From: Antedon mediterranea
Lineage: Eukaryota; Animalia; Echinodermata
NCBI RefSeq assembly: GCF_964355755.1
Contig: NC_092677.1
Coordinates: 5,788,101-5,852,100, forward strand
Direction: 5' to 3'
DNA: 64,000 nucleotides
Part shown: piece by piece, positions 24,301 to 62,859 of the stretch
Numbering within the stretch: position 1 is the first letter of the stretch
Layout: every line of letters begins with the position of its first letter
Position numbers and translations under genes: made by a program
Notes under the pieces: model-generated
Told to the model about the DNA's origin: nothing
The model's input: the letters and a program-made list of their open reading frames with translations, nothing else
Database searches by the model: none

Positions 24301-25059
24301 GGTGGCCCGGGCCGGGAGGCTGGGTAGGCAGCTCCACACCCCACCCCTTGAACCCCTCCTGGATAAGTGACGCGATGAATTATTGTAACACAATACATTT
24401 ACTTTAAAGCACAATGCAGATTATTACAATAAGATCTAAAGAGGCAACATATAACATCAGTAGAACATTTCATATTGGGATTGAGCGAGTTGCTTCTAAA
24501 AAACACGTTTCCTCATCACTGCGATCACACGTGAGAATATGAGTACCAAGACTTCTCAAATAATTCATCGATTGCAAACTCTTTACAACAAACTGACGTA
24601 CTAGTTGCTGGAGTATAGAAACTGTTAGAGTTATAAAAGCAAATCAAGATCCTTAGCGATAAATTAATATGATATAATATGCCAACTGTTTGTACTAAGA
24701 AACTTGATTTGGCCGATTTTTGTTGTGAACTTTACAATATTTAGTTAAAAGTAATAAGGTTGCAATGCAAATTGTTATTGAAATTACAACCTAAAAATAC
24801 GATTTGATTAGTTAACAATCCAATGTTAAAATCAGTTGTTATCGCTTCAATCGATCTTAGACTAAGTTGCTAATTATGATTGTGAAACAATGGTATTAAA
24901 TAAAATCGACAGCAATAAGAAACTTACTTTCACTCAAATGATACATTATTGTTTTTACAGAAAAGACGATTAGGTCTGAAAGAAAACAAGTCTAAAGATA
25001 ATGACCTCCAATATCAAGACATGCAATATGCGTCACCCCTTCTCATTACCAGGAGCTAA
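21388..25059 (+). CDS. Gene 3: SP-V-C-(chimeric stalk)-TM-tail receptor with a GC donor after TM and a frameshifted tail
   Basis: SP 21388-21439, V 22244-22531, C 23216-23512, chimeric exon 23621-23737, TM 23867-23982 (donor GCAAGT), tail 24961-25059 KRRLGLKENKSKDNDLQYQDMQYASPLLITRS*. Confidence 0.72.
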
Positions 25060-25977
25060 AACCCAGTAAGTAAATACACGACAAGAAGGCGGAAAAATGT
25101 CAAAACGTATGCAATGACAAGAAGACAAGATGAAGATGTACCTGAACAAGTTTTAGATTAAGTTCTCATTTACCTATAGATCTTTAATAGTAGGGGCTGA
25201 TATGAAAAGAGTTGTGAAAACAAAAACGATTCTATATACTAAAAAGATATATGAACGTTCCTCCTAAAATTAATAATTGTAATTTATATGAACCCCGCTA
25301 CTAGCCTACCTACATTTTTAAAGTTGATATAGTGATTTTAATTATAAAAGATGCATTAATTATTTTATGTAAATAAGGTACAATAAAAATAATAATTTAA
25401 ACAGCGCAAACTAAAACTAGGCCTAATATATGTTAACAATTGTTTCCACTAGTCAAATTTTCGAATCGAAAGCGTCATCTTATACGCATGGGTGTATTGC
25501 AAAGCGAAAATTGGTGCTAAACCAATCACGAGTTCAGGAAATTAGTTATGACGCTTCAGTGAGCACTTATGCGTATCTTAAATCTCAGTAGCAGACACGC
25601 AATGGAAATGAAAATCGGCAAAAAAAAAAGAAAAAAATAAATATTATAAAACTATTTATAGGCTATAAATACAAAAGCGAGTTTATAGTATCTTCTTCTT
25701 TTTTTTATGTATAGACAGTTTAGATTTAATGGGGCTAAGAGAACTTGTGAATTTCATTCTGATATTATACTAAGATACTAATAATATTTGACTGTTGTAA
25801 TGAGGACTTGCTTTAGTATAAGTGACTTCTGTGATATTCCTTTAACGTTTTGCTTTAAAGATATATTTAAATAAAAATTAAAAAGATGAATAAAATAAAA
25901 TTTTGAACACGAAATTTTGCAGTTCACATGTTCACCTTGCAACTTTCTGGTGTCAACTAAGTTGGCCGTTAGTGGCT

Positions 25978-26933
25978 ATAGTCATTTTAGTTTGTTTGTT
26001 TATTTTAGGAACGGACCGCGCGTGTGAAGGTACAGTAGTTAAAAAATAAAAATTATACTGCAAATTAATAAAGATCAATACAAATTAAATATACGCCATA
26101 AAGAATCGGAAGATATTGTGAGGAATAGTATTAAAAAATTACATAGGGAGATCTGATGATGATAAGACATTTTATTTAAAATCGAGTGAAATCCCGATAG
26201 CCGAGTTTTATTGAATAAGCTGGCAGGAATAACTGTAGGCTATCTGTGTCCCGTTAGGACCGGGATGTCTGCCCAAGTTGCAAGCCGCCTAAAACGTCTT
26301 CCTTCTTGGGCCGAAACAGCCCACTCTGTCGCGGAAGTTAGTTTCAAAAGACGTTTAAATTAAATAATGTATTGATTATTAGGATGGCATTTATTTGAAT
26401 AAACGCCTCCCCAAAAAAACATCACTTTGAATAATAATCGCCCCTTCCCCCAACCCAACTTTCTAATAAACGCCCATCCACAATTATACACACAATATTG
26501 TATTATATTTATAATAACACAATTATACTGTTTGTAGTAGAATTCATCGCACTGTTATCTACAATTTACCAAGCATGTCCTTCTTTTTCACCACTTTTCA
26601 TATCTATTATAGGATTTTATTTAACTATAAATGTTACCATTATTATTTAAAAAAGAATTAAACATATCCCTCGAATGAGCACCTCCCTCAAATGAACTCT
26701 ACCTCCCCACCTCCGCCCTATAAGGGTCCTACTAAACAATAAACACTATACTTTAAAATGCTATTAATCATCTAAGACACTGTGAAAAAGAGTAGGTTTA
26801 GTTTTACGAATGTCAAGCATTTTAAATAATGGTAACCGACAGAGAAAACGTACAAGGAGAACGTCCTTTTTAAACGAGTCATTATCATTCCAAGAACCAT
26901 CGTCTACACTTCCTAGAGTACTTCCCTCTAGTA
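25978..26933 (+). repeat. About 0.9-kb non-coding segment duplicated at ~48139-49034
   Basis: Colinear similarity by eye (e.g. GTGTGAAGGT.CAGTAGTTAAA, TGTGTCCCGTTAGGACCG.GATGTCTGCCC, GAACCATCGTCTACACTTCCTAGAG). The copies lie upstream of genes 4 and 8. Confidence 0.8.
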
Positions 26934-28274: not shown

Positions 28275-30239
28275 ATGTCAACATTTGTGTTTCTGTCTCT
28301 ACTGTTTCTTATTGAAAACACAATCGGTAAGTTTTTTTCAGGTGTACAACGGAAAGACCATTGTTCTATAACTATTTGTTGTGTTTACTTTAATAAAAAA
28401 AAAATTCAGTAAATAAAGATTTGGTTACTTCAGTGTACATATCTATATATCAGGGAAGGAAGAGGGGAGAGGGAAGGGAGAGGGGGAGAGGGGGAGAAGG
28501 AAGGGAGTGGGGCGGGAAGAGTGGGGAGAGGGGAGGAGAAGAATGAGAAAAAGGGGAAGAGAAGAATGAGAAAAGGAGGAGTAGGAGAGCGTTCGTGCGG
28601 GTGGCAACTGAATAAAACAAGGAAATTGTTATGCAGCACAATACATTCTTCAAACTAGGCATAATAATAATTGTGTTCGTCTTATTGAATGTACATAATA
28701 GGAATGCGGCTCTTATATATCGATGACCATAGAAATACCGAAAACTGTTCTATGATATATTGTTAATCATCCAGGTTCTAGATAAATATTCATAACACAA
28801 TTATATTCATAACGTGAACTTATTTACAAATATTAACTTATTCTTAATCATAATTCGTTCAAACCAGAACTTGATATCTATAGCCATTAATTGTTTCCAA
28901 TTTAGCATTCTATATTGCTAATTCTATTTATATTTTAGCCTCAGATGTTATACTATCTGTAGTAGAAGGTAATTCAATCACAATTCCTGGAGGTGGTATT
29001 CGCATTGACAAGATACATGCAGTAAGTTGGTTCAAAGGTGAAAAAGCATATCAATATCAACAAGGTATCGTTCATTCTAACAATCGTCAATCTGGCAGAT
29101 TTTCGATCGTTAATTCCTATGGAGATTTGATGATACAGAATGTAAGTAGAGATGATGCAGGGTACTACACTGTTCAAGTTATTGAAAGTGGCGAGGAACT
29201 TAGCGAGACCAACACATATCACCTGGATGTATATTGTAAGAATAAAAAAATGTTTAATAATATTAGATCTTTAATTTAGATATTCTAAAATTAGATAAGT
29301 ACGGTATATGTTTTTTCAACATTTACAATACCAATCATATTTCAATAAATGAAAACATTCACTTAAGGATTGAAACAAATTAATATTACATTGATAATTC
29401 TTATTATTTCTTCCTATTCTTATAAGAACATTCGTGTTCTGTTTTTAAAATACTTACATTTTGTGTAACACTATGTTTTGTAATAACTTACATACATTCA
29501 TGTCAACATGTAAAACATTTATATATTAGATCTTAGTTAGCAGAGATATATATTTACCGATTCTCTGACAGTTAATGCATGCAATGTGATCACAAAAGAC
29601 ATATAGAGAGAGGAATAGCGCAGTCCGCTAATTGAGGCAACATTTAACATCAGTAGAATATTTCATATTGAGATTGAGCGAGTTGCTTCTAAAAACTATC
29701 ACACATGAGAATACGAGTACCACGACCTCTCAAATAAATTCATTCTCGATTGCAAACTCGTTACAAACAAATACCGTACTAGTTGCTGGAGTATAGGAAC
29801 TATGAGACTTATAAAAGCAAACATTTAATATGATATAATATGCCAACTGTTTGTACTAAGAAATTTGATTTGGCCGATTTTTGTTGTGAACTTTACAATA
29901 TTTAGTTAAATGTAATAAGATTGCAATGCAAATTGTTATTGGAATTACAACCTAAAAATACGATTTGATTAGTTTAACAATCCAATGTCAAAATCAGTTG
30001 TTATCGCTTCAATCGATCTTAGACTAAATTGCTAATTATGATTGTGAAACAATGGTATTAAATAAAATCGACAGCAATAAGAAACTTACTTTCACTCAAA
30101 TAATACATTATTGTTTTTGCAGAAAAGACGAGTAGGTCTGAAAGAAAACAAGTCTAAAGATAATGAACTTCAATATCAAGACATGCAATATGCGTCACCT
30201 CCTTCTCATTACCAGGAACTAAAACCCAGTAAGAAATAG
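28275..30239 (+). CDS. Gene 4: SP-V-tail unit lacking C and TM exons; predicted secreted single-V protein (or pseudogene)
   Basis: SP 28275-28326, V 28939-29235, tail exon 30123-30239 (KRRVGLKENKSKDNELQYQDMQYASPPSHYQELKPSKK*). A deletion junction at ~29632 fuses the V-C intron to the post-TM intron. The V-to-tail splice creates T|AA, a stop codon. Confidence 0.7.
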
Positions 30240-33071: not shown

Positions 33072-36000
33072 ATGGCGAGAATTGTATGCATATTTCTTTC
33101 ATTACTGATTTTATTCGAAAGCGCTATAGGTAAGGGTTGTCAGCGATAAAAATCGCTTAACAAATGTGCACCTCCTCAAAACGTTGATTGATAAAATCAA
33201 TACTTTTGCATTATGATTTTGATATAGTATACACTTGTGTGTACAAGACTATTTTTTTAAATAAAATAATAGGATAATATTTTGTATTTATAATGTAAAT
33301 TTCTTTACTGGACACCAGATGATGTGCATTTATTATAAACTATAATGCAATGGTTTTTATGCATTTAGGTATGTTTAGTAATCCATATTTTAAAAAGGGT
33401 GCTTCCACAGACTACTTTGTGATTGTACGGTAGTATGTTTTTTTTTATGTAAACTATTTAATTATTATTTTATTATTATTTCATTTTTGCTGTGATTCAT
33501 AAATACAGATTAGTTTATAATATTAATAATAATAATAATAAATAATTTATATCTAAGCCTCGGATCGTATAAAAGAACTGTCAATAATTGAAGATGAACA
33601 AATCACAATCTATGCTGGAGGTGGCATTCCCATTGATAAAATACACGCGGTAATTTGGTTCAGAGGTAAAGAAGTATATGGAGAAAGACAAATTGTTAAC
33701 TCTGTTAGTCAACTTCAAAATGGAAAATTTTCAATCGGAAAAGTGTATGGGGATTTGATCATACAATATGTTGATATAACAGATGAAGGATATTACACAG
33801 TTCAGGTTAATGACGAGGAAACGGCTCGGACCACAACGTATCACCTGGATGTGTATTGTGAGTTATTTCCTAACCATTTCTATACATTAATGTAATAGCT
33901 TTTATAGAAGATGAACTTTTTAGTTTATTTATGCTAGTACAGTGATACTTTATAAAATAATTATATGAAATGAAAGTAATGCGATTTTCTATTCAGTACA
34001 CTCTGATAACATAATGAACTAGGTAGTGTTATTCATATTTTTTACTTTGAATATCTTCTGGTCTAAGTAAGCATGTATTTTAAAACTAACTCTTCCCAGT
34101 ATATTTAAATAATACTATCACTATCATCTTTACAGATATGGATTCTCCAAATTTCATAGCATCAATCGATAATAGCAATAGCCACTATGCATTCTACTGT
34201 ATATGGGGTAACATATATCCCGAAATGGAACCGAAAGTAACATGGACACTTAATGGAAATTTATTAAATACATCAACGCCTAAATACAGTGTAACAGATG
34301 AAGGGAAACGTTGGAACAAACTGGTTATTTTTGAAAATATGTCTGAGAATGATTTTGGGAACTACTCTTGTCGTATTACTGTAAACCTGGATGAGGGTAC
34401 TATGGAAAAGACAAGCAATTTAGAAGAAATATGGCAAGCATCTAGTTCTGGTAAGTAAAACATAACATTTGGTTCTAAAGCCTTGTCTACACTATCAAAC
34501 TTTATGGGACACCAAAATATAATGTGCCCATATCTGGACATGATTATGTCACCTCACTACCATAGTAGTATTTTTTGTCAAATTAGTTTGTGTGCAGATT
34601 AGACAGAGCTGGAACCTAGTTCAGATCTATACCGTATATCATAGCAATAACAAAAGCGTAAGCGCAGTAGCGTCCTGTAAAGATATAGAGCCTAAGTGTA
34701 TTATGTTGTTTTGAATTAATACTAGATACTTTCAACGGTTCATTTAGATTCATCGTAATTAGGAAAGTTTCGTGATGAGTCATATTATAAGTAAGGAAAT
34801 GGTGATAGAAAGTAAGCACAGAATTGAACTGTCGCCACTAAAAAGTTATATTTATGTAAATATTTGTTTCATTTCAGCTGCTCCATCTATAGAGACGTTT
34901 TCGGTAATCGAAGGAGACCGAACCGTAATTCCAGCTAGAGTCGATGTGCCCATAAACACAATACAATCAATAACTTGGTACAAATTTAAATCACCACAAA
35001 CAAACTATACAATTGTTAGTTTAACAAATCGAACCAATGGCCGCTTCTCAATTGATGGAACTGGCAAAAACTACGGTGATTTGATCATACAACATGCTGA
35101 TAGAGAAGATGCGCGTTATTACACATGTCAGATTTTACAAAATAGAAATTCTAGAGAGAAGACCATTACGTATTATTTAGATTTATACTGTAAGTTTAGT
35201 ATATCCTAGTGTATAGATATTTTGGCGATTAGACCTAACGTTATAATATTATTATAAAAACGTTTGAAGCATGGATAAAAAGATCTCATGTAGCTGACTC
35301 TATCACTTATGATATAATAATATTATACACATAATTATGAAATGAGGTAAATAATTCCATAAGAGGAAAAACTACTTACGTTTGATAAATAACTATATAA
35401 ATAAAACCCAATACAATTTCCAACAATAATACAACACACAAGATCGCCTACTCTTAAATTCAGAATGAGTTGTGTTATTCCATTTTTATTTCAGATCTAG
35501 TTTCTCCAACTCTCACAACATTCACTGAAAACAGTCCTACTGGTAACAAATATGGTTTCTACTGCATATGGTTTAAAATGAACCCAGAGATGGAGCCGTA
35601 CGTAGCATGGCTACATAATGGACATATATTAAAAACCTCAACGACTAAGTACAGTGTGATAAAGGACGAAGAAAGGAGCATACAAACACTCATTATTCTG
35701 GAAATGACTGAAAATGATGTTGGAGAATATGCGTGTCGTATTACGATTGAAACAAAATTAGGAATGCCTAATATGAGTAAAACAAGCACCATCGAATACG
35801 TTACGATAAGTAAGTAGGCCAACCCCTTTTTACTACCCTTGTCACACTTCTTTCTGTTACCTGCAATAACTTTAATATCTAAAACTAACTAATTTTCTTA
35901 GCATTTTGTTCTGTTTCAGGTGCGTTGGATTCACCTTCGTCAACAGGCCTATCAAGTACATTAATAGGAGGCTTAGCTACAGTGACAGTTGTTTGTATAC

Positions 36001-36716
36001 TTGTCTCTATCCTTACTTGTGTAATAGCACGTGTTATGTATGTAAGTATTTCAAATTATACAGGAAATAAAAACACGGAGATGAATTAAATTCAACAAAT
36101 GTACTGCATAGTAGAACTTTGACTTTGAATGATAATGTTAATGATGACGATGACTATGACACAATGATGACGATGACGGTGACTATGACACGATGGTGAT
36201 GATGATGATTACGATGATAATAATGGTGCATAATGACCATCACGTGCAACTGGAACTTACATTTTTGTCTCATTTAGTATTACGTTTGCTTGGCCTAAGC
36301 ATTACGTTTTAGATTGATTGGTATTATATTGCTCGTATCATTTTGTGACTTGAAAGAAAATACATTAGTCATTCAGTCGGTTCTGTTTATGATTTGAGAG
36401 TTATATAATAACTTAATGACACTGAATAAAAACAACAGAAAGTCTAAACTTTTACTTTCAATCAATATTAAAACACAGGAATTATTTAAAAAAATTTATA
36501 TTCTTTTGATAGGAAAGACGAGTAAAGCAAATTAATTCTAAACGTAAAAGTCCTCAATACCAAGACCTGCAATTTATGCCACGCCCTGACCAGTACCAAG
36601 AGCTTACTATAGATTCTAGAATACACGACGGTGTCACCAACAAAAATAAAACAGATAGAAAAATCTCGGAAACGAGTTCGAAGGTTAACGTTGTTTATGA
36701 AGACATACCTAATTAA
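33072..36716 (+). CDS. Gene 5: apparently intact IgSF receptor, V-C-V-C, TM, ITAM plus ITIM tail
   Basis: SP 33072-33129 (MARIVCIFLSLLILFESAI), V 33558-33857, C 34136-34450, V 34878-35189, C 35495-35809, TM 35920-36041, tail 36513-36716 (...YQDLQFMPRPDQYQEL...VVYEDIPN*). All are phase-compatible. A probable non-coding exon donor lies near 31985. Confidence 0.87.
36130..36225. repeat. Degenerate (GAT/GAC)n microsatellite in the gene 5 TM-tail intron
   Basis: GATGACGATGACTATGAC...GATGATGATGAT read directly. Confidence 0.8.
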
Positions 36717-38367: not shown

Positions 38368-39050
38368 ATGGCAACATATATGTTTTTGCTCTTTCTCATC
38401 CAACAGACGACAGGTAAGATATCATTGTAATAAAGTGAAGAAAATTGATGGGGTGGGGTTGTGAATTGTGTCAGTTTCGCCCCTCGGCCGAAAAAAGTGT
38501 TATTTGTCTAGTATAAAGATATGATACAAGGAATGAAAGTACCTGGAAGGATCTACTACCGTATTCGATATCGACACCGGTGGACCTTTTTGCAGAGTAA
38601 ATTGAAGTGGTGAACTACGATATATCAGTGAATTTTTGACAATATTATGTGTACAGGTATTTAAATATTAATTTCCCACATTGCTTCTGTTACCTACAGA
38701 AAAGAAGAGCATCAGTAGAAATTCATTCTAAACAAGATCTACAATACCAAGATGTGCAACTTTCTTCATTCCCCTCCGTGTACATCGATTCTAACATAGA
38801 CAACGGTGTTATCTATGCAAATACAGAGGCCGGCAATATGTCGGATAGGTGGCCGAAGGAAGACGGAGCCGGCAAAATGCTGGATGCGTGGCCCAAGGAT
38901 GACGTAAGCAGGAACATGGCGGATGAATTGCCAAAGGGCGGCGTTACGGTGAAATTTTCGGATGCGTGGCCAAAGAGCGGCGTTACGGTGAACATGTCGG
39001 ATGCGAGGCCGAATAAGGATGAACTCAATTATGAAGTTGTGAATTATTAG
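38368..39050 (+). pseudogene. Gene 6 relic: SP exon plus an intact tyrosine-motif tail exon, with all Ig and TM exons missing
   Basis: SP 38368-38413 (MATYMFLLFLIQQTT, gtaag). Tail 38700-39050 reads KRRASVEIHSKQDLQYQDVQLSSFPSVYIDS...VIYAN...LNYEVVNY*. Only 286 bp separate them and the phases are incompatible. Confidence 0.72.
38832..39026 (+). repeat. Coding 39-bp (13-aa) tandem repeat, 5 copies
   Basis: GNMSDRWPKEDGA / GKMLDAWPKDDVS / RNMADELPKGGVT / VKFSDAWPKSGVT / VNMSDARPNKDEL. Confidence 0.88.
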
Positions 39051-44300: not shown

Positions 44301-44980
44301 TGTGCAATTACATTTTTTTAATATAAGAAAAAGTTTAAAGTAATTTCTTGCTCCTATACTTTACATGCATTAACGGAGACAAGTTTGACACAAATTGATC
44401 TGCATATCACGTGACTTAAATCCAATGTCGTAACTCTTTATATATATGGCTCTGAATACTACTGTACCTGATAGAGAGTGTGCTATATTTTAAAACCGAA
44501 TAGTTCAGTTCAACTAATAATGCTGTACGTAATTTGTGAATACTGTTTCAATTATTACAAAAACAATTACGAATTGAATTTTTTTAATGATACATTAATT
44601 GTTAAATGGTTTGTTGGTGGCGATACTGAGGCGGTTACTTATATCACCCAGTAGGGCCTACTGCCAGAGGCAACTGATCATTTTCTAAATAATCCCTAAA
44701 TCAGTGAAAAGGCAGATATATGTTGTATGTCACCCAATAACGTTTTATTATTGTGTCTATAGGGAAAAGAGATAGCAGAAATTTATATCAAACATCAGAA
44801 TTTACTTCAAGCATTACAGGAGGCCCGGACAACGGAGATAATTTACCGGTACCTCCATCATACCTAGACGTTACCGAACATGTCAATATTCCGGATGTAT
44901 GTGATGGCACTACTATGGCAACTATTGAAACAGAAACTATTTCAGTAAATTGTTTAGTGTATGATGAAATTCCAAACTGA
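41311..44980 (+). CDS. Gene 7: apparently intact IgSF receptor, V-C, distinct TM, ITIM-type tail without ITAM
   Basis: SP 41311-41356 (MATYLFLLFLIQQTI), V 41779-42084, C 42745-43071, TM 43187-43321 (LWFIVFVCATVFIVCVIGVLLSI, phase 1), tail 44763-44980 (...NLYQT...PPSYLDV...LVYDEIPN*). Confidence 0.85.
43640..44454. mobile_element. Non-autonomous hAT-like element in a gene 7 intron
   Basis: Imperfect TIR CAGAGCC....ATATAAAGAGTTACGACATTG, with an 8-bp TSD AATACTAC at 43632-43639 and 44455-44462. Confidence 0.85.
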
Positions 44981-50100: not shown

Positions 50101-50941
50101 GGACATTATCGATGTGACAATGACTATTACGACGGCGACTTTTATCGACGGTTCACCAAGTTGGTAACATCAGAAGTCGCAAAAATGTTAACATTAATAA
50201 CAAGTGAACCATAACTCCTATTTATAGATATGGCAACATATTACCTGTTCTTGATATTTCTTTGTCAACCGACGATAGGTAAGATTAATTGAGAAAAGTT
50301 TATTATTATGTTTGAATCAGTTATTATTATTAGTCAAGGGAAAAATGGCAAATAGCTTCCTACTTTCCAGGAGTTTTATGTTAGTTAAGTTATCAGAGAG
50401 TCTATGTTGTTTTTGAAAACTCTGTAACATGACCACAGTCCTGATTTTGCTTAGAGTTATCGTTTTTAAGATCAAATTGATATGCTTTATTTGTAGTCTC
50501 AGGTGTAACACAATTGTCGATAATCGAAGGCGAAACTACACAAACCAACAGTGGTGTTGGTAGTCTATGAGTGCCGCTTACCTGGATAAACCAACATAAG
50601 CCTCTCTCTCCGACGAGAGGTAAACATTACGAAAAGAAGAACATTAATAACATTAATTTTTCCCCACCCCCGTCGGATAATGGATCAGTCCGCCACCAGT
50701 ACGCCCTCAAGTGAGACACACCCACTTATCATCGTCATCATTTCTCAAGACCACCTGCCTGAGGGGACGGTAGGGAGGGCGTTTATCCAGGTAAGCGGCA
50801 CTCATAGACTACCAACACCACTGTTGGTTTGTGTAGTCTATATCGTGCCTAGCTTACCTGGATAAACCAACATAAGCCAGTGTAGCACCGGACTAGAGTC
50901 TAGTCGGAGGCGGGAGGTAAGGTAAACATTGTCATACATAC

Positions 50942-53809
50942 CTAGTGTCTGGGCTTCAAGATTGAAGCCGCCACCGTAGACTGGTTTGCGGAGGTATCCG
51001 ACAGGTAGTGGGATGTGAAAGTGGACTGTGATCGCCACCATGCCGCTTGCAGGATGTCTGGAAGGGGCACCCCAGCAAACAGCGCCCATGAAGCGGCTAT
51101 GCCACGCACTTGGTGCATATGTGCCGGAGGAGGCGTATTTGTGGAGTCGTAACCAGCCCGGATGGCTGCCACGACCCAGTTTGCCAGCGTCGACCGAGCA
51201 GCCGGTCGGAAGGGTGCAACTGTCGATACGAACAGATGTGACGCTGAGACCCGAATGGACTCTGTGCGTTTGATGTAAAACTTTAGTGCCCGCACCGGGC
51301 ACCAAAGTCTGTCTTCCTCAACCCCTGAACATGCAGCAATGGTGGGAATAAACACAGTCGGCGGCGAGAAGTTCAATGTCTGAGATTTTGCAAGGAAATA
51401 TTTTCTAAAAACCAACCGCGCGCCACCCCGTTCAAACCTGATGTGCCCTGGCTCCAGAGAAAGAGCATGCAGTTCACCTCTGCGCTTGCACGAGGCTAGT
51501 GCAATCAAAAAGGCAGTTTTGAGAGTCAGGTTGTAAAGTGATGCCCTACTCAGGGGCTCGAAGGGTGGACGCATAAGAGCGGCTAGGACGACATTGACGT
51601 CCCAACGTGGAATCAGGGCCTTAGTAGGAGGCCGTTCTCGAAACATCCCGCGAAGCAAACTGGAAATTGCAGGGGATGAAGAGATGGTCGAGCCGTCCTT
51701 AAAATTCGGAATTACTGCACCCAAGGCAGACCGATAGCCGGATACGGTGCGAACCTGCAGACCTGACTCAAACAGGTAATGTAGGAAAGCGCAGACCTGG
51801 CCCAAAGTCACTTTCATAGGGTCGGTCTTCTGGCGCTTGCACCATTTGAAAAAGTGTTTTAATCGGCTATTGTAGACAGCAAGAGTGGATTCCCGTCGGG
51901 ATTTCGCCGCGAGGGCGGCCGGGCCATCTGGAATGCCTGAGTCTCTGAAGCGATTCCTGACAATGGCCATACAGTCAGGTCGAGGGATATGAGGTTCGGT
52001 AGAGCAAACCGAGCTCGGCCCTGCGTCAGCAAGTCGTTCCGAATCGGAAGACGTAACGGCTGATCGTACAGAAGGCCTAGTAGCAGTGGAAACCACGGCT
52101 GCCTGGGCCAATACGGCGCTATTAGTAGGACTCGGCATTGATGGCGCTGAATGTGCGTCAGGACCAGTGGCAGTATTGAAAACGGTGGAAAGGCATATGC
52201 CCAAAGGTTGTCCCATGGTATGGACAGGGCATCCACCGCCCACGCATGTGCATCCCGATATCGACTGCAGAACGTCGGGAGCTGCGTGTTGCCTGACGTC
52301 GCAAACAGATCTACATGGGGCCGCCCAAAGTGGTTGAAGATCTGGGTGGCGATTATTGGAAGAAGACGCCATTCCGTAGGACGTAGAAGTGGACGGGACA
52401 GTGCGACCGCCACTATGTTCAGACGACCCGCAATGTGGGCCGCTGACAGTTGGATGTTGTGTCTTATACACCACATTAGCAACGTCCACGTGTGGCAACA
52501 TAGCGTGGGGGACCGTGTACCCCCTTGCCTGTTTATGTATGCCACGACGGTTGTGTTGTCGGAATTGACGAGAACATGGCGATTTGCCAGATGGGGAAGA
52601 AGAGCCTCCAATGAGCGCTCGACTGCCCAAAGTTCGAGCAGGTTGATGTGGGCGCGCGTCTCCTCGGGCGACCAGAGGCCGGAGACGCGAATGTCCGGAG
52701 ACGGAATGTGACCGCCCCAGCCTACTTTGGATGCGTCCGTTTCCACACGGACATCCGGGATTGACCTTTGTATAGGTGTGCCCACAAGTAACCTGTCTTC
52801 CACGAGCCACCATTCGAGATGCGAGATAATGAACGCATTCGTTGGAACCACTTTGTGTAGAGAGTCTGATCTTGGGCGGTATGCTGCCAGAAGGTGCAGA
52901 TGTAGAGGCCGCATCCTTAACCGGCAGAACGGAACGAGGGCGACGAAGCTGGCCAGTGACCCCAAGGTGCGTAGCCAGTCGTATGCCGTCGGAGCCTGAG
53001 CATTGATAAGATGTAGCACTGCAGTTCTTGCCTTGGCCACACGCTCGATGGATGGGCACGCACGGCCCGTAACCAAATTTATTTGGGCTCCGAGATACAG
53101 AGGGTTCTGAGAAGGGAGAAGACATGACTTCTCCTCGTTTATTATGAACCCTGCTTGTTCCGTCACGAGGCGGACAAAAGATAAGCTGCTCAGCAGCTGG
53201 TCCCTGGACTGGGCCACGATCAACCAATCGTCTAAGTACATGAACACTCTGATGCCGTGTTGATGAAAGAACGCCGCCAGGGTTCTCACTAGACGAGTAA
53301 ACACTCGTGGGGCCGTTGAGAGGCCGAACGGCAGAGCTACGAATTGGTATACCTGATCGTGAATGCGGAAGCGCAGCCAACTCTGGTGTTCTTGCGCAAT
53401 AGGCACGTGAAAGTACGCGTCTTTCAAGTCTATTGTCGCTGCCCAGTCCCCTCGTCTTAGCCCCAACAGGATAGATGAGACAGTCTCCATCCTGAACCTG
53501 CGGGGCCGAATGTACCGCTTGTTCAGACTTTTGAGGTTTAGGATGGGTCGCCAATCGCCCGATTTTTTCTGGGCGAGGAAAACGGTGGATTCGTGTCCCG
53601 GGATCGTAAGTTGTTCTTTTTGAACATGCACCACAGCTCCTTTCTGGAGCAGTGCTTCGAGGCCCGTCATGAGCGCATGACTCTTTTCCGGCTCTGACGG
53701 AATCCTCGTGTGCCGGGCACCTCCGCTCACCGGAGGGCTCGAGAATTCGATACAATACCCGTGTGTCACGGTGGAGAGAACCCATCTGTCTGTGGTCAGG
53801 GTCTCCCAA
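50942..53809 (-). CDS. DIRS tyrosine recombinase ORF (YR in the C-terminal ~340 aa; the N-terminal part overlaps pol in another frame)
   Basis: SRRESTLAVYNSRLKHFFKWC (core-binding region), LKTAFLIALASCKRRGELHAL (catalytic R), CPVRAL, HQVRG (HxxR), AAWWRSQSTFTSHY (catalytic Y). Confidence 0.9.
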   Translation of the reverse strand: MGDPDHRQMGSLHRDTRVLYRILEPSGERRCPAHEDSVRAGKESCAHDGPRSTAPERSCGACSKRTTYDPGTRIHRFPRPEKIGRLATHPKPQKSEQAVHSAPQVQDGDCLIYPVGAKTRGLGSDNRLERRVLSRAYCARTPELAALPHSRSGIPIRSSAVRPLNGPTSVYSSSENPGGVLSSTRHQSVHVLRRLVDRGPVQGPAAEQLIFCPPRDGTSRVHNKRGEVMSSPFSEPSVSRSPNKFGYGPCVPIHRACGQGKNCSATSYQCSGSDGIRLATHLGVTGQLRRPRSVLPVKDAASTSAPSGSIPPKIRLSTQSGSNECVHYLASRMVARGRQVTCGHTYTKVNPGCPCGNGRIQSRLGRSHSVSGHSRLRPLVARGDARPHQPARTLGSRALIGGSSSPSGKSPCSRQFRQHNRRGIHKQARGYTVPHAMLPHVDVANVVYKTQHPTVSGPHCGSSEHSGGRTVPSTSTSYGMASSSNNRHPDLQPLWAAPCRSVCDVRQHAAPDVLQSISGCTCVGGGCPVHTMGQPLGICLSTVFNTATGPDAHSAPSMPSPTNSAVLAQAAVVSTATRPSVRSAVTSSDSERLADAGPSSVCSTEPHIPRPDCMAIVRNRFRDSGIPDGPAALAAKSRRESTLAVYNSRLKHFFKWCKRQKTDPMKVTLGQVCAFLHYLFESGLQVRTVSGYRSALGAVIPNFKDGSTISSSPAISSLLRGMFRERPPTKALIPRWDVNVVLAALMRPPFEPLSRASLYNLTLKTAFLIALASCKRRGELHALSLEPGHIRFERGGARLVFRKYFLAKSQTLNFSPPTVFIPTIAACSGVEEDRLWCPVRALKFYIKRTESIRVSASHLFVSTVAPFRPAARSTLANWVVAAIRAGYDSTNTPPPAHMHQVRGIAASWALFAGVPLPDILQAAWWRSQSTFTSHYLSDTSANQSTVAASILKPRH

Positions 53810-53877
53810 ACCCGTGAAAACCGTTTCAAGCGACCCCCCACCTGCCCGCCCTCGCTTGGAGGGACGGGCGCCCCCAA
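51859..53877 (-). CDS. DIRS pol: reverse transcriptase, RNase H and adenine-methyltransferase-like domain
   Basis: VGGRL, WRPILNLK, IDLKDAYFHVP, LPFGLSTAP, YLDD, TDAS..GWG, HINLLEL, SDN, then DLFAT...YAFPPF...PYWPRQPWF. Confidence 0.95.
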   Translation of the reverse strand: MGAPVPPSEGGQVGGRLKRFSRVWETLTTDRWVLSTVTHGYCIEFSSPPVSGGARHTRIPSEPEKSHALMTGLEALLQKGAVVHVQKEQLTIPGHESTVFLAQKKSGDWRPILNLKSLNKRYIRPRRFRMETVSSILLGLRRGDWAATIDLKDAYFHVPIAQEHQSWLRFRIHDQVYQFVALPFGLSTAPRVFTRLVRTLAAFFHQHGIRVFMYLDDWLIVAQSRDQLLSSLSFVRLVTEQAGFIINEEKSCLLPSQNPLYLGAQINLVTGRACPSIERVAKARTAVLHLINAQAPTAYDWLRTLGSLASFVALVPFCRLRMRPLHLHLLAAYRPRSDSLHKVVPTNAFIISHLEWWLVEDRLLVGTPIQRSIPDVRVETDASKVGWGGHIPSPDIRVSGLWSPEETRAHINLLELWAVERSLEALLPHLANRHVLVNSDNTTVVAYINRQGGTRSPTLCCHTWTLLMWCIRHNIQLSAAHIAGRLNIVAVALSRPLLRPTEWRLLPIIATQIFNHFGRPHVDLFATSGNTQLPTFCSRYRDAHAWAVDALSIPWDNLWAYAFPPFSILPLVLTHIQRHQCRVLLIAPYWPRQPWFPLLLGLLYDQPLRLPIRNDLLTQGRARFALPNLISLDLTVWPLSGIASETQAFQMARPPSRRNPDGNPLLLSTIAD

Positions 53878-53881
53878 GCCG

Positions 53882-55411
53882 TCACCGGCGCTTCACATTA
53901 TAATACCGGCGACCACTCCTGTTGGTGGCGCCTCTGCCACCCCTATTTCGCATTCCGCGAGGGGGGTGTGAAGCCTGTCTTGATGTAGAAGCCTGACTTT
54001 GCATAGGCTGAGCCGGTGGCGGCGGGGGAGGCTGCATCTGCTGAGGAGCAGCAGGGACAGGCGGCGGTCGTGCGGCTGTCCTTGAGCGTGAATTGCTAGC
54101 TCGGCGCTTTTGCGGGAAGCGCGCTCTTGTCTCCCGACGAGCTTCCCTCTCACGAGCCCATTTATCCTCCTTTTGTGAGAAGGAGCCAAAGAACAAGTCC
54201 TGCGCCCCGAAGGAGTCAGACGTAGTAAACCTACGGAAATCGGTCGGTGCGATGTCAGTTGCACCCAAGACGTTAACGCGACGGGCCGCGGCCGCAGATA
54301 ATGCGATCGTTGCCTGTTGATCAACAACCAGGCCCATGATCTGCTGTAGTAGAGCTATCACGTCCGAATCGCCCTGGGGCGGATGTTCTGGATCAGCCAG
54401 AAAAGATAGCAAGTACCCGGCCATAGAGGCGGCTCTAAGCGTCTCGCGTGCGGCCCTGTCGACGGACATAAGGACGTCCTCTGTCCGGGATTCCGAAGGC
54501 TTCAAAAAATTAGTCCTGGACGGGTCCAGGTTCTGGTCCTCACGGACCCGTTCCTTCGCTGCCTCCGGGACGCTCGGCGCCGCGATGTACAGTTCGAATT
54601 GTTTCTGCGGCACCGGAAAAGCCGATGACAGGCTATAAGGCATAGGCCTACGAACCTTGGACTCCTTAGCGATCAGCTCCACACGTTCCACAAGTTCTGG
54701 ATCGAGAGGCGTAACCGGGCACGAAGATACCTTCTTAAAGGGCGTGCGTACGCCAAAAGTGGAATACCGCTTAGACGAAGGAGTATGCTTAGGCTCTCGA
54801 TACGTGAAATCGACGCCGAGAAAGGACAGCACCGCGGGGACCGTCCGCATAACTAGCGCCTGCAGACCTTCCTCCCCTGGCCCGGCCTGCTCTCGTAAGC
54901 TATCTCTATCATCGTCAGAGAGCGAGGCCATCGTCCTGTCACTATCGTAGACCCTTTGCCGGACGGACGAACCATCGAAAAACGAGGTCTGCTGTGGGCC
55001 AACATCAATGTATGGAATCTGGGGAGGAGGTCTACTCTGAGAGGGTACCTCAGGCTCATCCCTCGGCAGAGCTCTCACAGCTGCAACAATGGCTTGCAGT
55101 AACCCCGGAGAAATCTCATTCACCCCCGGAACCGCAGAGGCCGCAGCCGGTGCAGGCATATCTGGAAGGCTAACTTCCGGCGCGACGACAGGAGGGCCTG
55201 CCGTATCAACGGTACCCACCTCCGGAGGTGGTACCGCTTCCGTGCGCTCTTTAGGCTTAGGGAGCGATTTGAACTTGGACGGTGTCCAGCGGACACAAAC
55301 ATCGCACGGCGACAACTCGGTACACGTGCGGCAATTTATACACTCCAAGTGGCGGTCCCACTTCACGGTAGAGCGGGGACCCCTACATTTAATACAGTCC
55401 TGCTTAGGCAT
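53882..55411 (-). CDS. DIRS gag-like ORF1
   Basis: 509 aa, first ORF of the element. N-terminal Cys/His cluster (CxxC...HxxCxxC..C.....CxxC), RRVNVL and LFFG motifs, basic Pro/Arg-rich C-terminus. Confidence 0.85.
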   Translation of the reverse strand: MPKQDCIKCRGPRSTVKWDRHLECINCRTCTELSPCDVCVRWTPSKFKSLPKPKERTEAVPPPEVGTVDTAGPPVVAPEVSLPDMPAPAAASAVPGVNEISPGLLQAIVAAVRALPRDEPEVPSQSRPPPQIPYIDVGPQQTSFFDGSSVRQRVYDSDRTMASLSDDDRDSLREQAGPGEEGLQALVMRTVPAVLSFLGVDFTYREPKHTPSSKRYSTFGVRTPFKKVSSCPVTPLDPELVERVELIAKESKVRRPMPYSLSSAFPVPQKQFELYIAAPSVPEAAKERVREDQNLDPSRTNFLKPSESRTEDVLMSVDRAARETLRAASMAGYLLSFLADPEHPPQGDSDVIALLQQIMGLVVDQQATIALSAAAARRVNVLGATDIAPTDFRRFTTSDSFGAQDLFFGSFSQKEDKWAREREARRETRARFPQKRRASNSRSRTAARPPPVPAAPQQMQPPPPPPAQPMQSQASTSRQASHPPRGMRNRGGRGATNRSGRRYYNVKRR

Positions 55412-58400
55412 GGTGATCTAACAGACCTACTTTTCCCCACTAGCCTAACGAACAACAAAAGATCTTCCAGTATTTCTATCCAGGTGAAACACACTGGATA
55501 ACGGCTTACAACGCTAAATTTTAACTCCTGGCAACTAGCCAAGGGTAACGATTCTAAACGTATCCACCACAAGATAACGATCTACTACACTTAGCTTCGT
55601 TTTCTTGCTCTATTCTTCTCTTCCTGTCTACAGTATAAAGGTCTTTATCGCAAATTCCTCAGGAATTCCAGGAATGTGTTCAGAAAAAGACGTACGTACA
55701 CAACGACGTTACGAAAAGAAATGATGACGATGATAAGTGGGTGTGTCTCACTTGAGGGCGTACTGGTGGCGGACTGATCCATTATCCGACGGGGGTGGGG
55801 AAAAATTAATGTTATAATGTTCTTCTTTTCGTAATGTTTACCTCTCGTCGGAGAGAGAGGCTTATGTTGGTTTATCCAGGTAAGCTAGGCACGATATAGA
55901 CAATCTCAGTTAACGTTTGCATGTCCGTTGAGAGAGAAGATGCGGTAAATTGGTTTGAAGATAGAGGAATAAATCCAAGCAAACTGATCGTTAATTCTGC
56001 CAATCGTCAATCGGGAATTTTCTCAATGAATGGAACTTCAGGCAATTTGGTCATAAAACAAGTAAACAGAATGGACGCTGGTCTCTACACATGTCAGGTT
56101 GTTGAAAACGGAGGCGAAAGGGATTGTACTGAAACGTATAATTTAAATGTATATTGTGAGTTGTTACTTTGTATAATGTAATATTGATGATACCTAATTG
56201 TAATCCTAATTGATATCCAATTGTAGTATGTATAATATAGCTATTTTTTATTTGTGTTTTAGAGTGACTTACTAAACCAAAATCTTTAGCAAAAGTAAAC
56301 ACATTTTGTAAACCTAAATTTATTTACATATTTAAAAACAAGGCCATATTCATGGATGCAGTCGCGTGCTCAAGTTAGTGTTTACCGACCAACCGACCAA
56401 CCGAGCAACCGACATAGTGAGCTATAGAGTCGCGTTGCACGCAAGAAAACAAATAAAGTCGTATGTCCTTCTTTTAAAAAAAACATACCAAGACGATACT
56501 TAAAGCTTACATTTTTTTTATAGATAATTTTCATATAAGCCCATTTACACTAGGGTGATAACGATCGACGATAAAAATAGATAAATATGCATTTTTAATA
56601 TATAAATCAAAAGAAATTTTTAAAAGTTGTTATCCTAGAACTATAGGATAACCACATGCTGCCTTTGATGATAATGATATTTTCACACGTTCAATCAAAT
56701 GGCGTCATGATTAGTTAGAGCAATAATATCGTGACAATACAACGATTTTATTGTTTTTATTGATCATGACATCATTTGATTGGATTTAAAAAAATAGTAT
56801 CTTTATCGAAGACAGAATAAATTATTACCCTATAGTTCTATTACTTCTATTTATTGTCATTTGCATATAAGATATACATAGAAATTGTGTTTGCTCTGAG
56901 ATATACCAAAAAAAACAGATAAATAAAAACCAAGTGTTATAAAAAGTGTTACATCACTCTCGTAGCATGCGTTCAGTGCCCGAATGGCAGCTGGATAAAA
57001 GCTACTTTACGAAACATATTAGTATTTCTAAAATTAACAATTATATTTTGGGCAAATTTAGCAATTGTGAAACTGAAAATTAGTATTTAAAAAACCTAAT
57101 TATTATTACTAATCGTCTATTGCATAGAGTAAGATATGCAAAGTAATTATACCGAAACAATTGTTGCTTCAAAGAGCTATTCATTTGAAAATGTTTCATA
57201 CCAATGTTTCATTTGTTAATTCTTAAATATGTTTTTAGGTTGATGCTGTGTTTGCATATTAATTACTGAGTACCGTATTTCTTGCATAACAACATTACAA
57301 CATTGTGTATTTTCCATATTAAATTATTAATAATTATTACTAAATAACAAATTAAGCTAAGTAATAACAATGTGTATGCCAAGATGTTTTTAAAAACAGT
57401 AATGATTACAATATAAATTATGGATATTTTATTACAGATATGGAGTCTCCAAATATCAAAGAATATACTACGAATATTGGAAACAATGTTGTTGGTTATA
57501 CACTGTGTTGTCAATGGTCAAAGATGTTTCCTAAAATGGAACCAAATGTCACGTGGTTTCAAAATGGCAATACATTAGAAGCTAGTACGACGTACGTTTT
57601 AGAAACACAAGGAAATGTGCATACAATGTGTATTAGTTACATATCAGAGGTTGGAGACTATTCTTGTCGCATTGATGTTGAAACAAGTATGGGTAATATG
57701 AGCAAGACAAGCAATTGCAAAGAACTGCAGTCACCTTGTAAGTAACAGAAAATTATTTTATATCATGTACCTTCCAAGGTTATATTATAAATTACATTTA
57801 TACTTAATGACATCAACAATAAAAAACTTTATGAAAAATATCGTACTTTAGAATGATCAAAATGAGGTGTTATAAACATACAGACAATACGTGTACTGTA
57901 ATAAATGTTATAATCATAAACCATTGAAGCATCATTCACATTCTTCTTAAATGTGTTTTCAAAGATGTTGATTCACCAATTGTCATCGTATCTATCGATA
58001 ACACAAAACGCTACTATGCATTTTACTGTGTATGGGGTTTATTGTATCCAGAATTTGAACCAGACATAACCTGGATTTTTAATGGAAATATACTGAACAC
58101 ATCAATAACTAAATACAGTGTAACAGACGAAGGGAAACGTTGGAATAAACTTATTATTCTTGATACAATAAGTAAGGACGACTTAGGAAACTATTCTTGT
58201 TGTATTACTGTACAAATGGATGACGGCACTAATATAACAAAGAAAAGCAATGTAGAAGAACTTTGGCAAGCATCTATTAGTGGTAAGTTAGAAATATATA
58301 GAATTTTATTTACACGCTGTTAAGCCTGTTTCGAATTGACAGGATTCAGCGATTTTATTGGAGAAGGGGGTAAACATGCTGTCAATTCAATGCAACTCAG

Positions 58401-60515
58401 CGTAACTCAACGATCGACAGGAAAACAGGCTTAACGCTAAATGTATAGATTACATATAAGGATACAATAATATCACAACAAAAACTTACATATTTTGCAT
58501 AAATGGAAAATACAGACATTGATTGATAAATATACAACTTACAGTAAATTTTTGGGTTTGGATTGTTACCATTGCGACAGATATTACATAATACTACTGT
58601 ACTAGGTGTAGTTCAAAACATTTCTAACGTGACAAAATTACGCCTGCAATTCTTGAACATTTCTATACTATTCAAGGTAGGCCAAAGAGACGAATGTCCG
58701 CTGATTTTAACAGCAGCTTAAATTCTCCGTGATATAACATTTATTTAATAAGGGTTAGCAAAATAGTAATAATCTAATAAAAATAATATTTATAATTCAA
58801 AAAGAAGTATTATTATTATTAATTTGAATAATTATTGTTTCATTTAAGTTACACGGTTATCAGTAGTTGAAGAGGAGCGAATAGCAATACCAGCTGGAGT
58901 TGGTGTGCCCATAAACGAAATTGTGACGATAAAGTGGTACAAGTATAAATCGCCAAACACAAGCTATATAATTGTTAGTTTAACAAATCGAACCAATGGC
59001 CGCTTCTCAATTGATGGAACTGGTGAAAACTACGGTGATTTGATCATACAACATGCTGATAGAGAAGATGCGGGTTATTACACAATTCAGATTTTTGAAA
59101 AAGAGGATTCTAGACAGCAGACCATTACGTATTATTTGGATGTACATTGTTAGTTTTTTTTTCTTTAATAAATATTATAATCATAGTATACAGTAGCGTA
59201 TAACCAAATTTAGGCACTAATTATATTTCCAACTTATATTTAAATATTATGATAGGTTATAATATATGTAGTCTTTAACCTCCACTCATTTTAAACTAGT
59301 ATCACATTATTTTTGCTAAATTGTAGACTTGACCATGAATGCCTTTTATCATTTTGTATTATATTATTTCAGTCGGGAAAATGTATTATTATGTTCTTAA
59401 TGCTATGTTCTTATTCACCTGGTGTGGCTTACTGCAGAACTGGATTCTCAAATTCACGAAGTGTTGTTACATACAGTCTTTCATAATTGAAGACAAAATA
59501 GATAATTTCCTACAATTAAACTTTGAAAAATATTGATCAGCGGTGGTATAATTGTATACACAAATTATTTGACTAAATTTGAATAAATACAATCACGGAA
59601 GTTATAGAAATGTTATGCTAATTTATAGTCTGCTCACTATTTTTTATAACTTTATTTCTTCCAAAGATCTACCTCAACCAACTCTCACATCATTCACTGA
59701 AAAGGCTGGCCACAGAAACACGTTGTACTGCAGGTGGTGTCAAATTTACCCCGAGATGGAACCGTACGTAGCATGGTTACATAATGGACATATATTAAAC
59801 ACCTCAACGACTAAGTACAGTGTGATAAAGAACGAACAGAAGAACAGACAAACACTCATTATTCTGGAAATGACTGAACAAGATGTTGGAGAATATGCTT
59901 GTCGTATTACTAAAAACAAAATTAGAAATGCCTAATATGAGCAAGACAAGCAATATTGAAATCCTAGGTACGAACTGCACAATACATTGTTTATTTTATC
60001 GTCGTCAATTGTTTCACTACAAAATATTTCTAAATTTAGGTATCAATTATAGTTGATTGAAACATATTTAATTCGGGATTAAGTTAGTTTTTTTTAAATA
60101 TAAATTATAAAAATATTGTTATAACAAACATGCTTTCTTTTTAAGGTGCTTTGGATTCAACAGTAGCAGCATGCTTATCAAGTACAATTCTAATTGTCGC
60201 TGTTGTAATCACATTTATCTTTGGATCTGTCCCCACTTGCGTAATAGCAATTTGTCTTCATGTAAGTATTTTTTTAATTACACGGGGCTAAAAGACACAA
60301 GCGAAATAGGTTGTATAGTATTAAAAGAAAAATAAACTCTTATTGTACAAAGAGAATGATTTTCGGACCGAATAATTGGTTTGTTTTGGATTTTGTTTTT
60401 ATCTATGCTGGAAGGTTTCGTCAACATTATCATTAGTACCATTATAAATAACCAATTACATAGAAATTTAAATTATCATTTATAATCTGAGAGTAAATTA
60501 GTAGGTCTAAATAAA

Positions 60516-61285
60516 AACAAGGCCAACAGCCATTAAGTCGCGTGCTACAATGCATAGTGATACCGGACCGACAGACAAACAGACCGACAGACAGACAGAC
60601 CGACAGACAGACGGACCGACCGACATAGTGAACTATACTGACCGAAATTACTGAACATGTTTAAAAATGTTGAAATGTTTAAAAACATTTATATTTTTTT
60701 AATTTACACGTGCGTAGCCTGTCACTTTTGACGTGCTCGTATAACGTAATTTCGAGTTGAAAAGTAAGTCAAGAAAACAGAAATTGGGCAAAAAGAGTGC
60801 GCAATAACATTTAACGCGCAGTGCAAAAAATCTGCGCACTCATGGCAATTTTGTAAACGCTTAAAATTGCCTGAAACGTACTCTTATTTCATCGAAAATA
60901 AATTTGGAAAATTTTAAGCGCGCGTACGCATGCGTTACATGCGCTACGCACGTAATTGTATTGCCATATGATGATTTATGCCCTGAAATTTATGAGTACC
61001 AAATTTTATTTAATTGTGATTCATGGTTGTTAAGATATGATTACAAACGTGATTTCGTTAAATCGTGCGTAGACCGCGTAATTTTTTATTGCGCACCGTG
61101 AAAACATAACCACATCGATTCCTGCCCATAAGGAATATTCTGTGAAAAATTGACTTAGCTAGATTAAACTGATATCAAGATAAGGTCATAAAGCGATAAA
61201 ACGCATAGTGATACCGGACCGACAGACAGACAGACAGACCAACCGATCGACATAGTGAACTATAGAGTCGCTTCCACGCGACTAA
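60516..61285 (+). mobile_element. Long copy of the Helentron/DINE-like repeat in the gene 8 TM-tail intron
   Basis: Starts ACAAGGCCAACAGCCATTAAGTCGCGTG, has two (GACA/GACC)n blocks and a terminal hairpin GAGTCGC...GCGACT. It is absent from the paralogous intron at ~45810. Confidence 0.7.
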
Positions 61286-62067
61286 TAATGGTGTACTTAT
61301 CAACGGTAAAATGATACACTTTTACTTTCACTCTATAATGAATCATTTATATTTTTCTTACAGAAAAGACGAGTAAAAGAAATCCATACTAATCATAAAA
61401 GTCACCAATATCAAGACCTGCAATTTGTTTCCAGTCCCGCTATTTACAATACAACGATATATCCTATAACAGACGACAACGTTGCTACCAATCAATACGC
61501 TGACAAAATGTCGTATACGCCGTGTCCTAAGCCTAACGTTGATTATCAGAATGTGACGAACTAGTCTAACTTGCTTATTACTTTTTATTAGAGAATCGGG
61601 GGTGGGGGAGGGGTGTTTTTTATATAATGTATAATTGTATATATAACTAGAAAATCAAATTCTTTAAATTAATACAGGCTATAATATACACACATTTAAC
61701 AAAAGCTTTTTTTCCTTAAGAAATATCGTTTAAGCATAATACATGCTCAAGGAATAATTGATTGTTTGTTTGAAATAATATAATTATGAAACATGTAATC
61801 AAGAAAACAAATATATAAATTTGATTAACTTTAGCCTTGCTCCAGTTGATACTGTAAAGCTTCATTATCAAACTTTATGTGACAGAAAATGTGATGTGCA
61901 TGCATGGATATTATAATGTCTTATCACTACGATATTTGGGCATGTCACTACCATATTTGGGCTCATCGCATACTTTTTTGACAAACTAGTTTGATAGTGT
62001 AGACAGGGCATAAAACAAACTAACGTGTATTAGAATGTTCGTCAAAACACATGCGTTTTGTATGGTG

Positions 62068-62460: not shown

Positions 62461-62859
62461 CCCCAATGTGTTCTCACTTTAATTGCATACGAAGTAGTAT
62501 ATCAATATTAAATCTTACATTCCTATTTTAAACTATAAACAGCATGACGACCATATTTTGTATGGCAACATTATGCCATTATGTGCTTAGAAAAGCGTTG
62601 GCTATACATTTTCAAGTTTAGTCTAGCTTTCATTTGTCTGTGTGTTAATAATGTATACATAATCATAAATATAAAGATGTCGGTGTTACTAATTAATATC
62701 ATTTACCTAATAAAAGCAAATATCACATTGAAAATTTGCAATATTTATAACCTTTTACCATTACGGTGCATTTTTATCATTACTTTTGATATGGGAGTTT
62801 TAAGAATTTCCAGTTACCAAGACTTACCAAGAGGGCGACATTAAAAACTGGTCTTTATA

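Follow-up and report, generated by a model that had tools for sequence, protein, structure and literature searches.

Clusters of invertebrate receptor genes carrying ITAMs (immunoreceptor tyrosine-based activation motifs) as well as inhibitory motifs (ITIMs) have already been described in cnidarians and tunicates. Hydractinia Alr is a tandem cluster of immunoglobulin (Ig) superfamily genes and pseudogenes with an unusual V-set domain, an Fn3-like domain, invariant cysteines, and both ITAM and ITIM tails (bioRxiv 10.1101/2022.03.04.482883). The Botryllus FcoR genes, which belong to the same superfamily in an invertebrate deuterostome, vary in copy number and by small motif changes in the tails of alleles and paralogs, use a hemITAM and an ITIM, and pair with fester genes (PMC12582321). 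In vertebrates, CEACAM1, CEACAM3 and their relatives form a clustered, fast-changing family with pseudogenes, in which a leader, a disulfide-free IgV-like N domain and IgC-like domains are followed by a transmembrane (TM) segment and tyrosine motifs; CEACAMs are described as vertebrate-restricted (PMC5112662, PMC2832619). Here we analyse a 64,000-nucleotide stretch of the genome of Antedon mediterranea, a comatulid crinoid (contig NC_092677.1, positions 5,788,101 to 5,852,100; hereafter the window), which holds eight Ig receptor gene copies, g1 to g8, in tandem on the plus strand between 10.1 and 61.6 kb.

The crinoid cluster shares with Alr its tandem arrangement of genes and pseudogenes, an unusual V-set domain and tails with ITAM and ITIM sequences, but no Fn3 match was found in 22 Ig exons and the TM exon follows an Ig exon. 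The likeness to FcoR lies in copy-number variation and in tails that vary by small motif changes, whereas the crinoid genes have full ITAMs and no triacidic hemITAM, and no partner gene was seen. Judged by the sequence features tested, the cluster appears to work like Alr and FcoR in logic and to be a member of neither. The likeness to CEACAMs covers both the domain plan and the mode of family change; in CEACAMs, however, phase-0 introns interrupt the ITAM YxxL motifs, and separate paralogs carry the ITAM and the ITIM (PMC5112662), whereas a single crinoid exon holds both. A literature search on a CEACAM origin in invertebrates showed nothing relevant among the 20 matches listed. In receptors of the CD2/SLAM group (CD48, CD84, 2B4), as in the crinoid genes, a C-type domain comes after a V domain that lacks the B-F disulfide. 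The TxYxxV/I switch motifs used by SLAM tails are present in none of the 7 window tails. The vertebrate FCRL and fish NILT families, which have other ectodomains, combine ITAM-like with ITIM motifs in a single family or tail, an analogy of signalling logic only. Our literature search found no description of a crinoid or echinoderm ITAM/ITIM receptor cluster; subscription papers, including older sea-urchin Ig gene work, lay outside that search.

The reading that we favour, with a probability of roughly 0.6, is that the window contains a tandem crinoid Ig-superfamily receptor family with four whole and four broken copies, and that the family's one tail exon probably held both an ITAM and a terminal tyrosine motif at the outset and was later cut back by separate small mutations.

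The receptor family and its tail exon

The window is AT-rich animal DNA in which CpG is not depleted. Exon boundaries were placed at splice sites by coordinate and then translated, and phase consistency was checked. All 22 Ig exons that were scanned matched Pfam Ig families at E ≤ 0.1, many of them below the curated cut-off. A profile built from nine C-domain exons matched 7 proteins among 7988 candidates, of which five were RefSeq models from A. mediterranea, all on a single contig of 28.6 Mb (one of them 100% identical to a g5 exon); P0005 and P0007 were set aside as generic multi-Ig matches. Eight of the nine V exons have 0-1 cysteines and hence no B-F cysteine pair, presumably as in the CEACAM N domain. 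A V-domain model (predicted local distance difference test, pLDDT, 90.7) matched V-set folds. The best PDB sequence matches of the V domains were CEACAMs, and by fold CD48 ranked top, then CEACAMs, with CD84 fourth, at 18-24% identity and with a margin over other V-set domains of about one order of E-value. A leader, one TM segment and an in-frame tail, which together with Ig domains mark an Ig superfamily type I receptor, were found in g1, g3, g5 and g7 (4/8). Whole receptors can be encoded solely by these copies; g2, g4, g6 and g8 are broken in this haplotype. The family appears to turn over by duplication, deletion and insertion, in a birth-and-death manner.

Every motif that a first-pass annotation had listed in the tails was recovered on the plus strand, those of g1, g3, g4, g5, g6 and g8 in a homologous phase-0 tail exon. 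The tyrosine codons lie at 16584, 16620 and 16725 in g1 (outside the span given in that annotation), 25012 in g3, 30174 and 30210 in g4, 36558, 36594 and 36696 in g5, 38745, 38781 and 39030 in g6, and 61409, 61445 and 61544 in g8, while the terminal motif of g7 is near 44960. The first motif lies 16-18 residues into the tail, and the spacer between the two ITAM halves is 8 residues in 5/5 window tails that retain both tyrosines. YQ[DE][LIMV] matched 11 times in six frames, compared with 2.8 ± 1.7 expected from 60 base shuffles, and the tails of g1, g4, g5, g6 and g8 aligned at p ≤ 0.003 in 10/10 pairs. The g7 tail, earlier called unrelated, is indeed of a different class (a phase-1 exon with a different TM exon), also found in the paralog P0008 outside the window, but its end resembles that of g5 (p = 0.0015, one of five protein comparisons being significant).

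The canonical ITAM, Yxx[LI]-x6-8-Yxx[LI], is present in 2/7 window tails (g1 and g5), with g4 qualifying solely if M is allowed. One form of the ITAM has an acidic residue three before the first tyrosine (PMC5112662); this residue is missing from g1 and g5 and occurs in g3, g4 and g6. The +2 residue of the first motif (D or E) is not conserved outside the window. A terminal match to the ITIM consensus [ILVS]xYxx[ILV], a loose rule that two ITAM halves also match, was found in 5/7 tails (g1, g5, g6, g7 and g8). Because the acidic +1/+2 residues of the terminal motifs resemble pYEEI, a ligand of the Src SH2 domain (PMC3507883), the label 'inhibitory' is not established for them. Both labels, activating and inhibitory, denote no more than consensus matches here.

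A tail profile searched against 1.84 billion representatives gave 5 matches, 4 of them real and all of these crinoid, and a further search added two Anneissia paralogs to give three Anneissia proteins. P0012 (E 1e-4) with its 13 cluster mates was a repeat-driven false match and was dropped before tails were counted. All three Anneissia proteins carry a canonical ITAM (YxxL-x8-YxxL) together with a terminal acidic tyrosine motif; in two of them the last motif has Pro at -2 and fails the ITIM rule. The ancestral tail exon thus likely comprised an ITAM and a terminal tyrosine motif. Two Antedon proteins encoded on the same chromosome outside the window, P0009 and P0011, have longer tails with repeated tyrosine modules; in P0011 the second ITAM tyrosine is gone and two further tyrosine pairs are present.

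The earlier view that one homologous tail exon runs through the copies, and that its losses are separate small lesions, was borne out. The second half-motif was lost through four lesions: a frameshift (g3), a 12-nt gap that lies in frame after the second tyrosine (g6), a 3-nt gap with substitutions (g8) and a Tyr to Cys change (P0011). Eleven tails were counted (6 from the window, 2 other Antedon and 3 Anneissia), g7 and P0008 being left out as a different class. The first half, as Yxx[LMV], was present in 11/11 and the second, as Yxx[LI], in 7/11 (Fisher's exact test, one-sided p = 0.045, two-sided p = 0.09, on tails that are not independent). Trees of the tails require 3 label changes, at least 2 of which are forced by one well-supported branch.

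Lesions in the g3 and g4 tails

The 1-bp deletion in the g3 tail, first placed at about 25046, appears to be real but lies at 25037/25038. The second half-motif persists downstream as DNA in another frame (tyrosine codon at 25047). Compensation of the deletion by the extra base at 25071 found no support, as a stop lies between them, and neither did a splice donor after 25065 that would extend the tail, as it lies past that stop. The g4 tail is short because of two in-frame nonsense codons. Past the stops of g3 and g4, the former reading frame extends as far as a stop codon aligning with the g5 stop, and the terminal tyrosine codon is replaced. Since this frame is open and has no terminal tyrosine codon, the ancestor of g3 and g4 likely had a full ITAM without a terminal tyrosine. 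That tail would be the cluster's one activating-only design, which in this haplotype is encoded by neither g3 nor g4.

Eight sequencing runs were available as contigs, not raw reads, none recorded as RNA, and four of the eight were compared over 19300-39299. In X4, from the sample that best matches the window, contig 10 covers 24975-25981 and consists of 995 letters plus 12 gap letters. By this arithmetic all gaps are omitted letters and none are inserted, and the g3 deletion is therefore also in short-read data. These counts argue that an assembly error is unlikely, for an animal that is not independent of the assembly. Run X8 comes from another sample and is RNA by our guess. One X8 contig joins 22243-22531 to 23216-23502, which is the g3 V-C splice, and a second ends exactly at the g3 tail acceptor (24961) with 88 letters left over. 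By this evidence g3 is spliced in what is probably RNA. Another X8 piece matches the second C exon of g5 edge to edge at low depth. The V exons of g2 and g4 were nearly uncovered in X8 and none of the listed pieces fell on the g6 tail, missing cover being no evidence. Run X5, which bears a different organism label, has matches to parts of g2, g4 and g5 that are about 96-98% identical, from a close relative or from host DNA.

Gene copies and neighbouring elements

Table 1. Positions of the receptor gene copies and associated features in the window.
Feature	Coordinates	Strand	Description
g1	10119..16745	+	intact, 617 aa; leader-V-C-V-C-C-TM-tail; canonical ITAM (8-residue spacer) and terminal ITIM-consensus motif
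g2	19085..21178	+	broken by a nonsense codon in the C exon (aa 205); leader-V-C-TM, with no tail exon ahead of g3
g3	21388..25059	+	322 aa; leader-V-C-extra stalk exon-TM-short tail with one YxxM; same as RefSeq P0003
g3 tail lesions, relative to g4	25037..25071	+	base missing at 25037/25038; stop at 25057-25059; extra base at 25071
g4	28275..30239	+	broken as receptor; leader-V followed directly by the tail exon, with no C or TM exon
g5	33072..36716	+	intact, 541 aa; leader-V-C-V-C-TM-tail; canonical ITAM and terminal ITIM-consensus motif
g6	38368..39050	+	orphan; leader exon directly then tail exon, out of frame; no Ig or TM exons
g7	41311..44980	+	intact, 343 aa; leader-V-C-TM-different tail class; terminal ITIM-consensus motif and PPxY, no ITAM
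g8-type tail exon remnant	45809..45911	+	retains the acceptor (near 45888) plus some 35 nt; remainder deleted
g8	50230..61564	+	broken; leader-V(interrupted)-C-C-V-C-TM-tail; damaged second half-motif and terminal ITIM-consensus motif
DIRS-type retroelement	50536..55900	-	inside g8 first V exon; ~5.4 kb; apparently intact

RefSeq models capture the copies unevenly (Table 1). P0004 covers g1 from late in its first V exon onward, P0006 terminates at the g2 nonsense codon, P0002 (g5) continues past the TM exon into the following intron and lacks the tail, and P0001 (g8) misses the 5′ end and the tail. The g3 TM exon uses a GC donor after 23982. The g3 stalk exon (23621-23737) is an in-frame chimera of the start of a TM exon and the end of a C exon, from a local duplication; it lengthens the stalk and is present in the RefSeq model. 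In g4 the V exon (phase 1) is joined to the tail (phase 0), giving a stop at residue 117 and a tail out of frame; the copy (28275-29235) could still yield a secreted single V domain of 116 residues, a possible soluble decoy. An X8 contig across part of the g5 intron 36042-36512, together with the RefSeq read-through, points to a possible tail-less g5 isoform by intron retention. The g6 tail has 116 open codons and 39-nt in-frame repeats; its use as an alternative last exon of g5, for which the phases fit, was left unsupported without read evidence.

The lesions of g8 are the DIRS-type element in the first V exon and a frameshifting 2-nt deletion near 59913 in the last C exon. Over 57438-59967 g8 looks like a fusion, its 5′ part resembling P0008 and its last three Ig exons paralleling those of g5, and there is no V exon between the two C exons. 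Flanks of the tail remnant upstream (45588-47072) are paralogous to 60305-62815. The inserted element has the features of the DIRS1 type, with three long open frames of 511, 677 (reverse transcriptase (RT)/RNase H) and 979 codons (tyrosine recombinase, whose matches were below the Pfam cut-off), terminal inverted repeats that are 98% alike, and an internal region complementary to both ends. The g8 sequences flanking the insertion rejoin in an open frame. The insertion is likely young, on the evidence of its sequence, and may be polymorphic.

Elsewhere in the window, a V-like Ig exon on the minus strand (898-1248) resembles the second V exon of g1 and probably belongs to a family gene running off the left end. 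A LINE (3570-6311, minus strand) has an open frame of 913 residues with endonuclease and RT, and more LINE pieces lie near 63178-64000.

Signalling output and competing explanations

The first-pass annotation had proposed that the paralogs span activating-only, dual and inhibitory-biased outputs. The motifs are real and lie in one homologous exon, but a working series of such outputs is not supported in this genome, where the graded repertoire is present only in part. A role for g4 as an activating-only receptor falls with its absent C and TM exons and its out-of-frame tail, and g6 and g8, put forward as inhibitory-biased receptors with a damaged ITAM, are both broken genes. In the mechanism that we propose, receptors clustered by a ligand through the disulfide-free V domain would have their tails phosphorylated by a Src-family kinase. 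A tandem-SH2 kinase (Syk or Shark) would then bind the two-tyrosine ITAM of g1 and g5, and the terminal motif would dock a phosphatase (SHP or SHIP) or a Src-family SH2 domain. In one study an ITAM missing either tyrosine was silent unless a triacidic run was added upstream (PMC3576117). Because the hemITAM triacidic run before a single YxxL was found in 0/3 half-ITAM tails (g3, g6 and g8), loss of the second half likely silences activation by this rule, and would switch Syk-type output off with no hemITAM made. The first motif was likely kept by doubling as a juxtamembrane YxxPhi sorting signal, tolerant of L, M or V. YxxM docks PI3K, and g3 could be a signalling-weak or PI3K-type receptor, or a decoy. 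On this scheme g7 would be a terminal-motif-only receptor, and g6 and g8 the probable remains of ITAM-dead receptors that were recently broken.

Whether the damaged tails changed in working genes or are plain pseudogene decay bears directly on this reading. If they are decay, no tails other than those of the g7 class and the dual tail of g1 and g5 would ever have functioned. Two of the three damaged window tails do lie in broken genes, frameshifts and stops remove the downstream half by simple polarity, and none of the 3/3 Anneissia proteins has a damaged ITAM. However, the g6 and g8 tails remain open with their first and terminal motifs over long terminal branches (0.46 and 0.37, respectively), g6 acquired its 39-nt repeats in frame, and g3 is otherwise whole and is spliced. 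For g5 and g8, whose tails are both open (67 and 66 codons), dS was 1.2 and the ratio of nonsynonymous to synonymous change (dN/dS) was 0.36. In neutral simulations with an analyst-chosen indel rate of 0.08 per substitution, the frame and both the first and terminal motifs were all kept in 0.26% of runs at a divergence (d) of 0.2. These results support the view that most of the divergence in the tails of g6 and g8 took place as coding sequence. Moreover, g8 broke recently: it contains 1 point-type lesion in 589 codons, and therefore died within about d 0.02, a span in which a half-motif was lost by substitution in at most 8% of runs. We conclude from these sequence comparisons that the g8 tail probably changed before the gene broke; the g6 tail may also have changed while its gene still worked, which we hold less surely. 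Decay as the whole explanation is unlikely.

Several results nonetheless weigh against our favoured reading. Counted by events, the asymmetry between the halves is 4 v 0 (p = 0.06); leaving out the polar frameshift makes it 3 v 0 (p = 0.125). Event-based p values ranged from 0.06 to 0.34, none significant, as decay would have it. Under a strict L/I rule the first half is present in 8/11 tails and the second in 7/11, and the asymmetry vanishes. The claim that the second half is preferentially lost while the first is kept therefore stands on four separate second-half losses but is statistically weak, and the pattern is suggestive, no more. The g7 tail has a tyrosine near the place of the first motif without a +3 hydrophobic residue, which if homologous counts against a kept first motif. 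The tail trees are mostly unresolved (1/6 and 1/3 of inner branches starred), and the sorting role suggested for the first motif is read from a consensus. The dating of g6 is weak, the copy being too short (zero lesions still has P = 0.12 at d 0.05). Values of dN/dS near 1, namely 0.95 for the g5 and g6 tails and 0.75-0.96 for V and C exons among g2-g4, also favour decay; relaxed constraint fits them as well as diversification does. Finally, relative to the window the X8 contig at the g3 tail has one additional letter and lacks another, the positions of both not being shown. It is possible that it represents an allele without both g3 lesions, and the expressed allele may or may not carry the frameshift.

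This contig would fit a population-level repertoire in which g4, g6 and g8 are whole on haplotypes other than this one, g3 there is unshifted and combines a full ITAM with the lack of a terminal tyrosine (a true activating-only receptor), and selection adjusts output through small changes in the tail. Two features of the sequence are in keeping with it: the DIRS insertion looks young and the sequences on its two sides join in an open frame, and past the g3 lesions the frame is still open to the ancestral stop. ITIM and hemITAM are also swapped among Botryllus FcoR alleles (PMC12582321). However, the X8 gaps may fall in 3′ homopolymers, a second g3 allele was not found among 5 matches (a cluster of 1), g4 has two nonsense codons on top of the deletion, and a positive selection signal was lacking, with 0/19 pairs having dN/dS above 1. 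We regard this explanation as quite unlikely. Bolder still is the idea of true homology between these crinoid genes and the vertebrate CEACAM/CD2-SLAM receptors, such that the receptor type and the ITAM/ITIM pairing would predate vertebrates; the ancestor would have combined the two switches in a single exon, from which small tail deletions, differing among haplotypes, would have produced paralogs of activating, inhibitory and decoy kinds. We consider this idea improbable. A little less probable again, in our judgement, is that these receptors serve adhesion or uptake without ITAM/ITIM logic, the tyrosines acting in sorting and as docking sites for Src/Grb2. The first motif does take L, M or V, like the endocytic YxxL/M/V/I/F class (PMC5112662), the acidic +1/+2 residues of the terminal motif are like those of pYEEI (PMC3507883), and the Pro at -2 breaks the ITIM rule in two Anneissia proteins. 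A single sorting signal needs no pair, however, and paired YxxL motifs occur 8 apart in both genera (g1, g5 and 3/3 Anneissia; 9 apart in P0009). Clustered, fast turnover is also typical of immune receptor families.

Because half of the copies are broken here, reading a repertoire from tail motifs alone is risky. Automatic annotation hides the cluster, the RefSeq models of g5 and g8 being without tails. The family nevertheless provides natural half-ITAM variants beside a dual tail that is conserved across two genera, making a side-by-side comparison possible, and its members are candidate self/non-self or pathogen receptors in a basal class of echinoderms.

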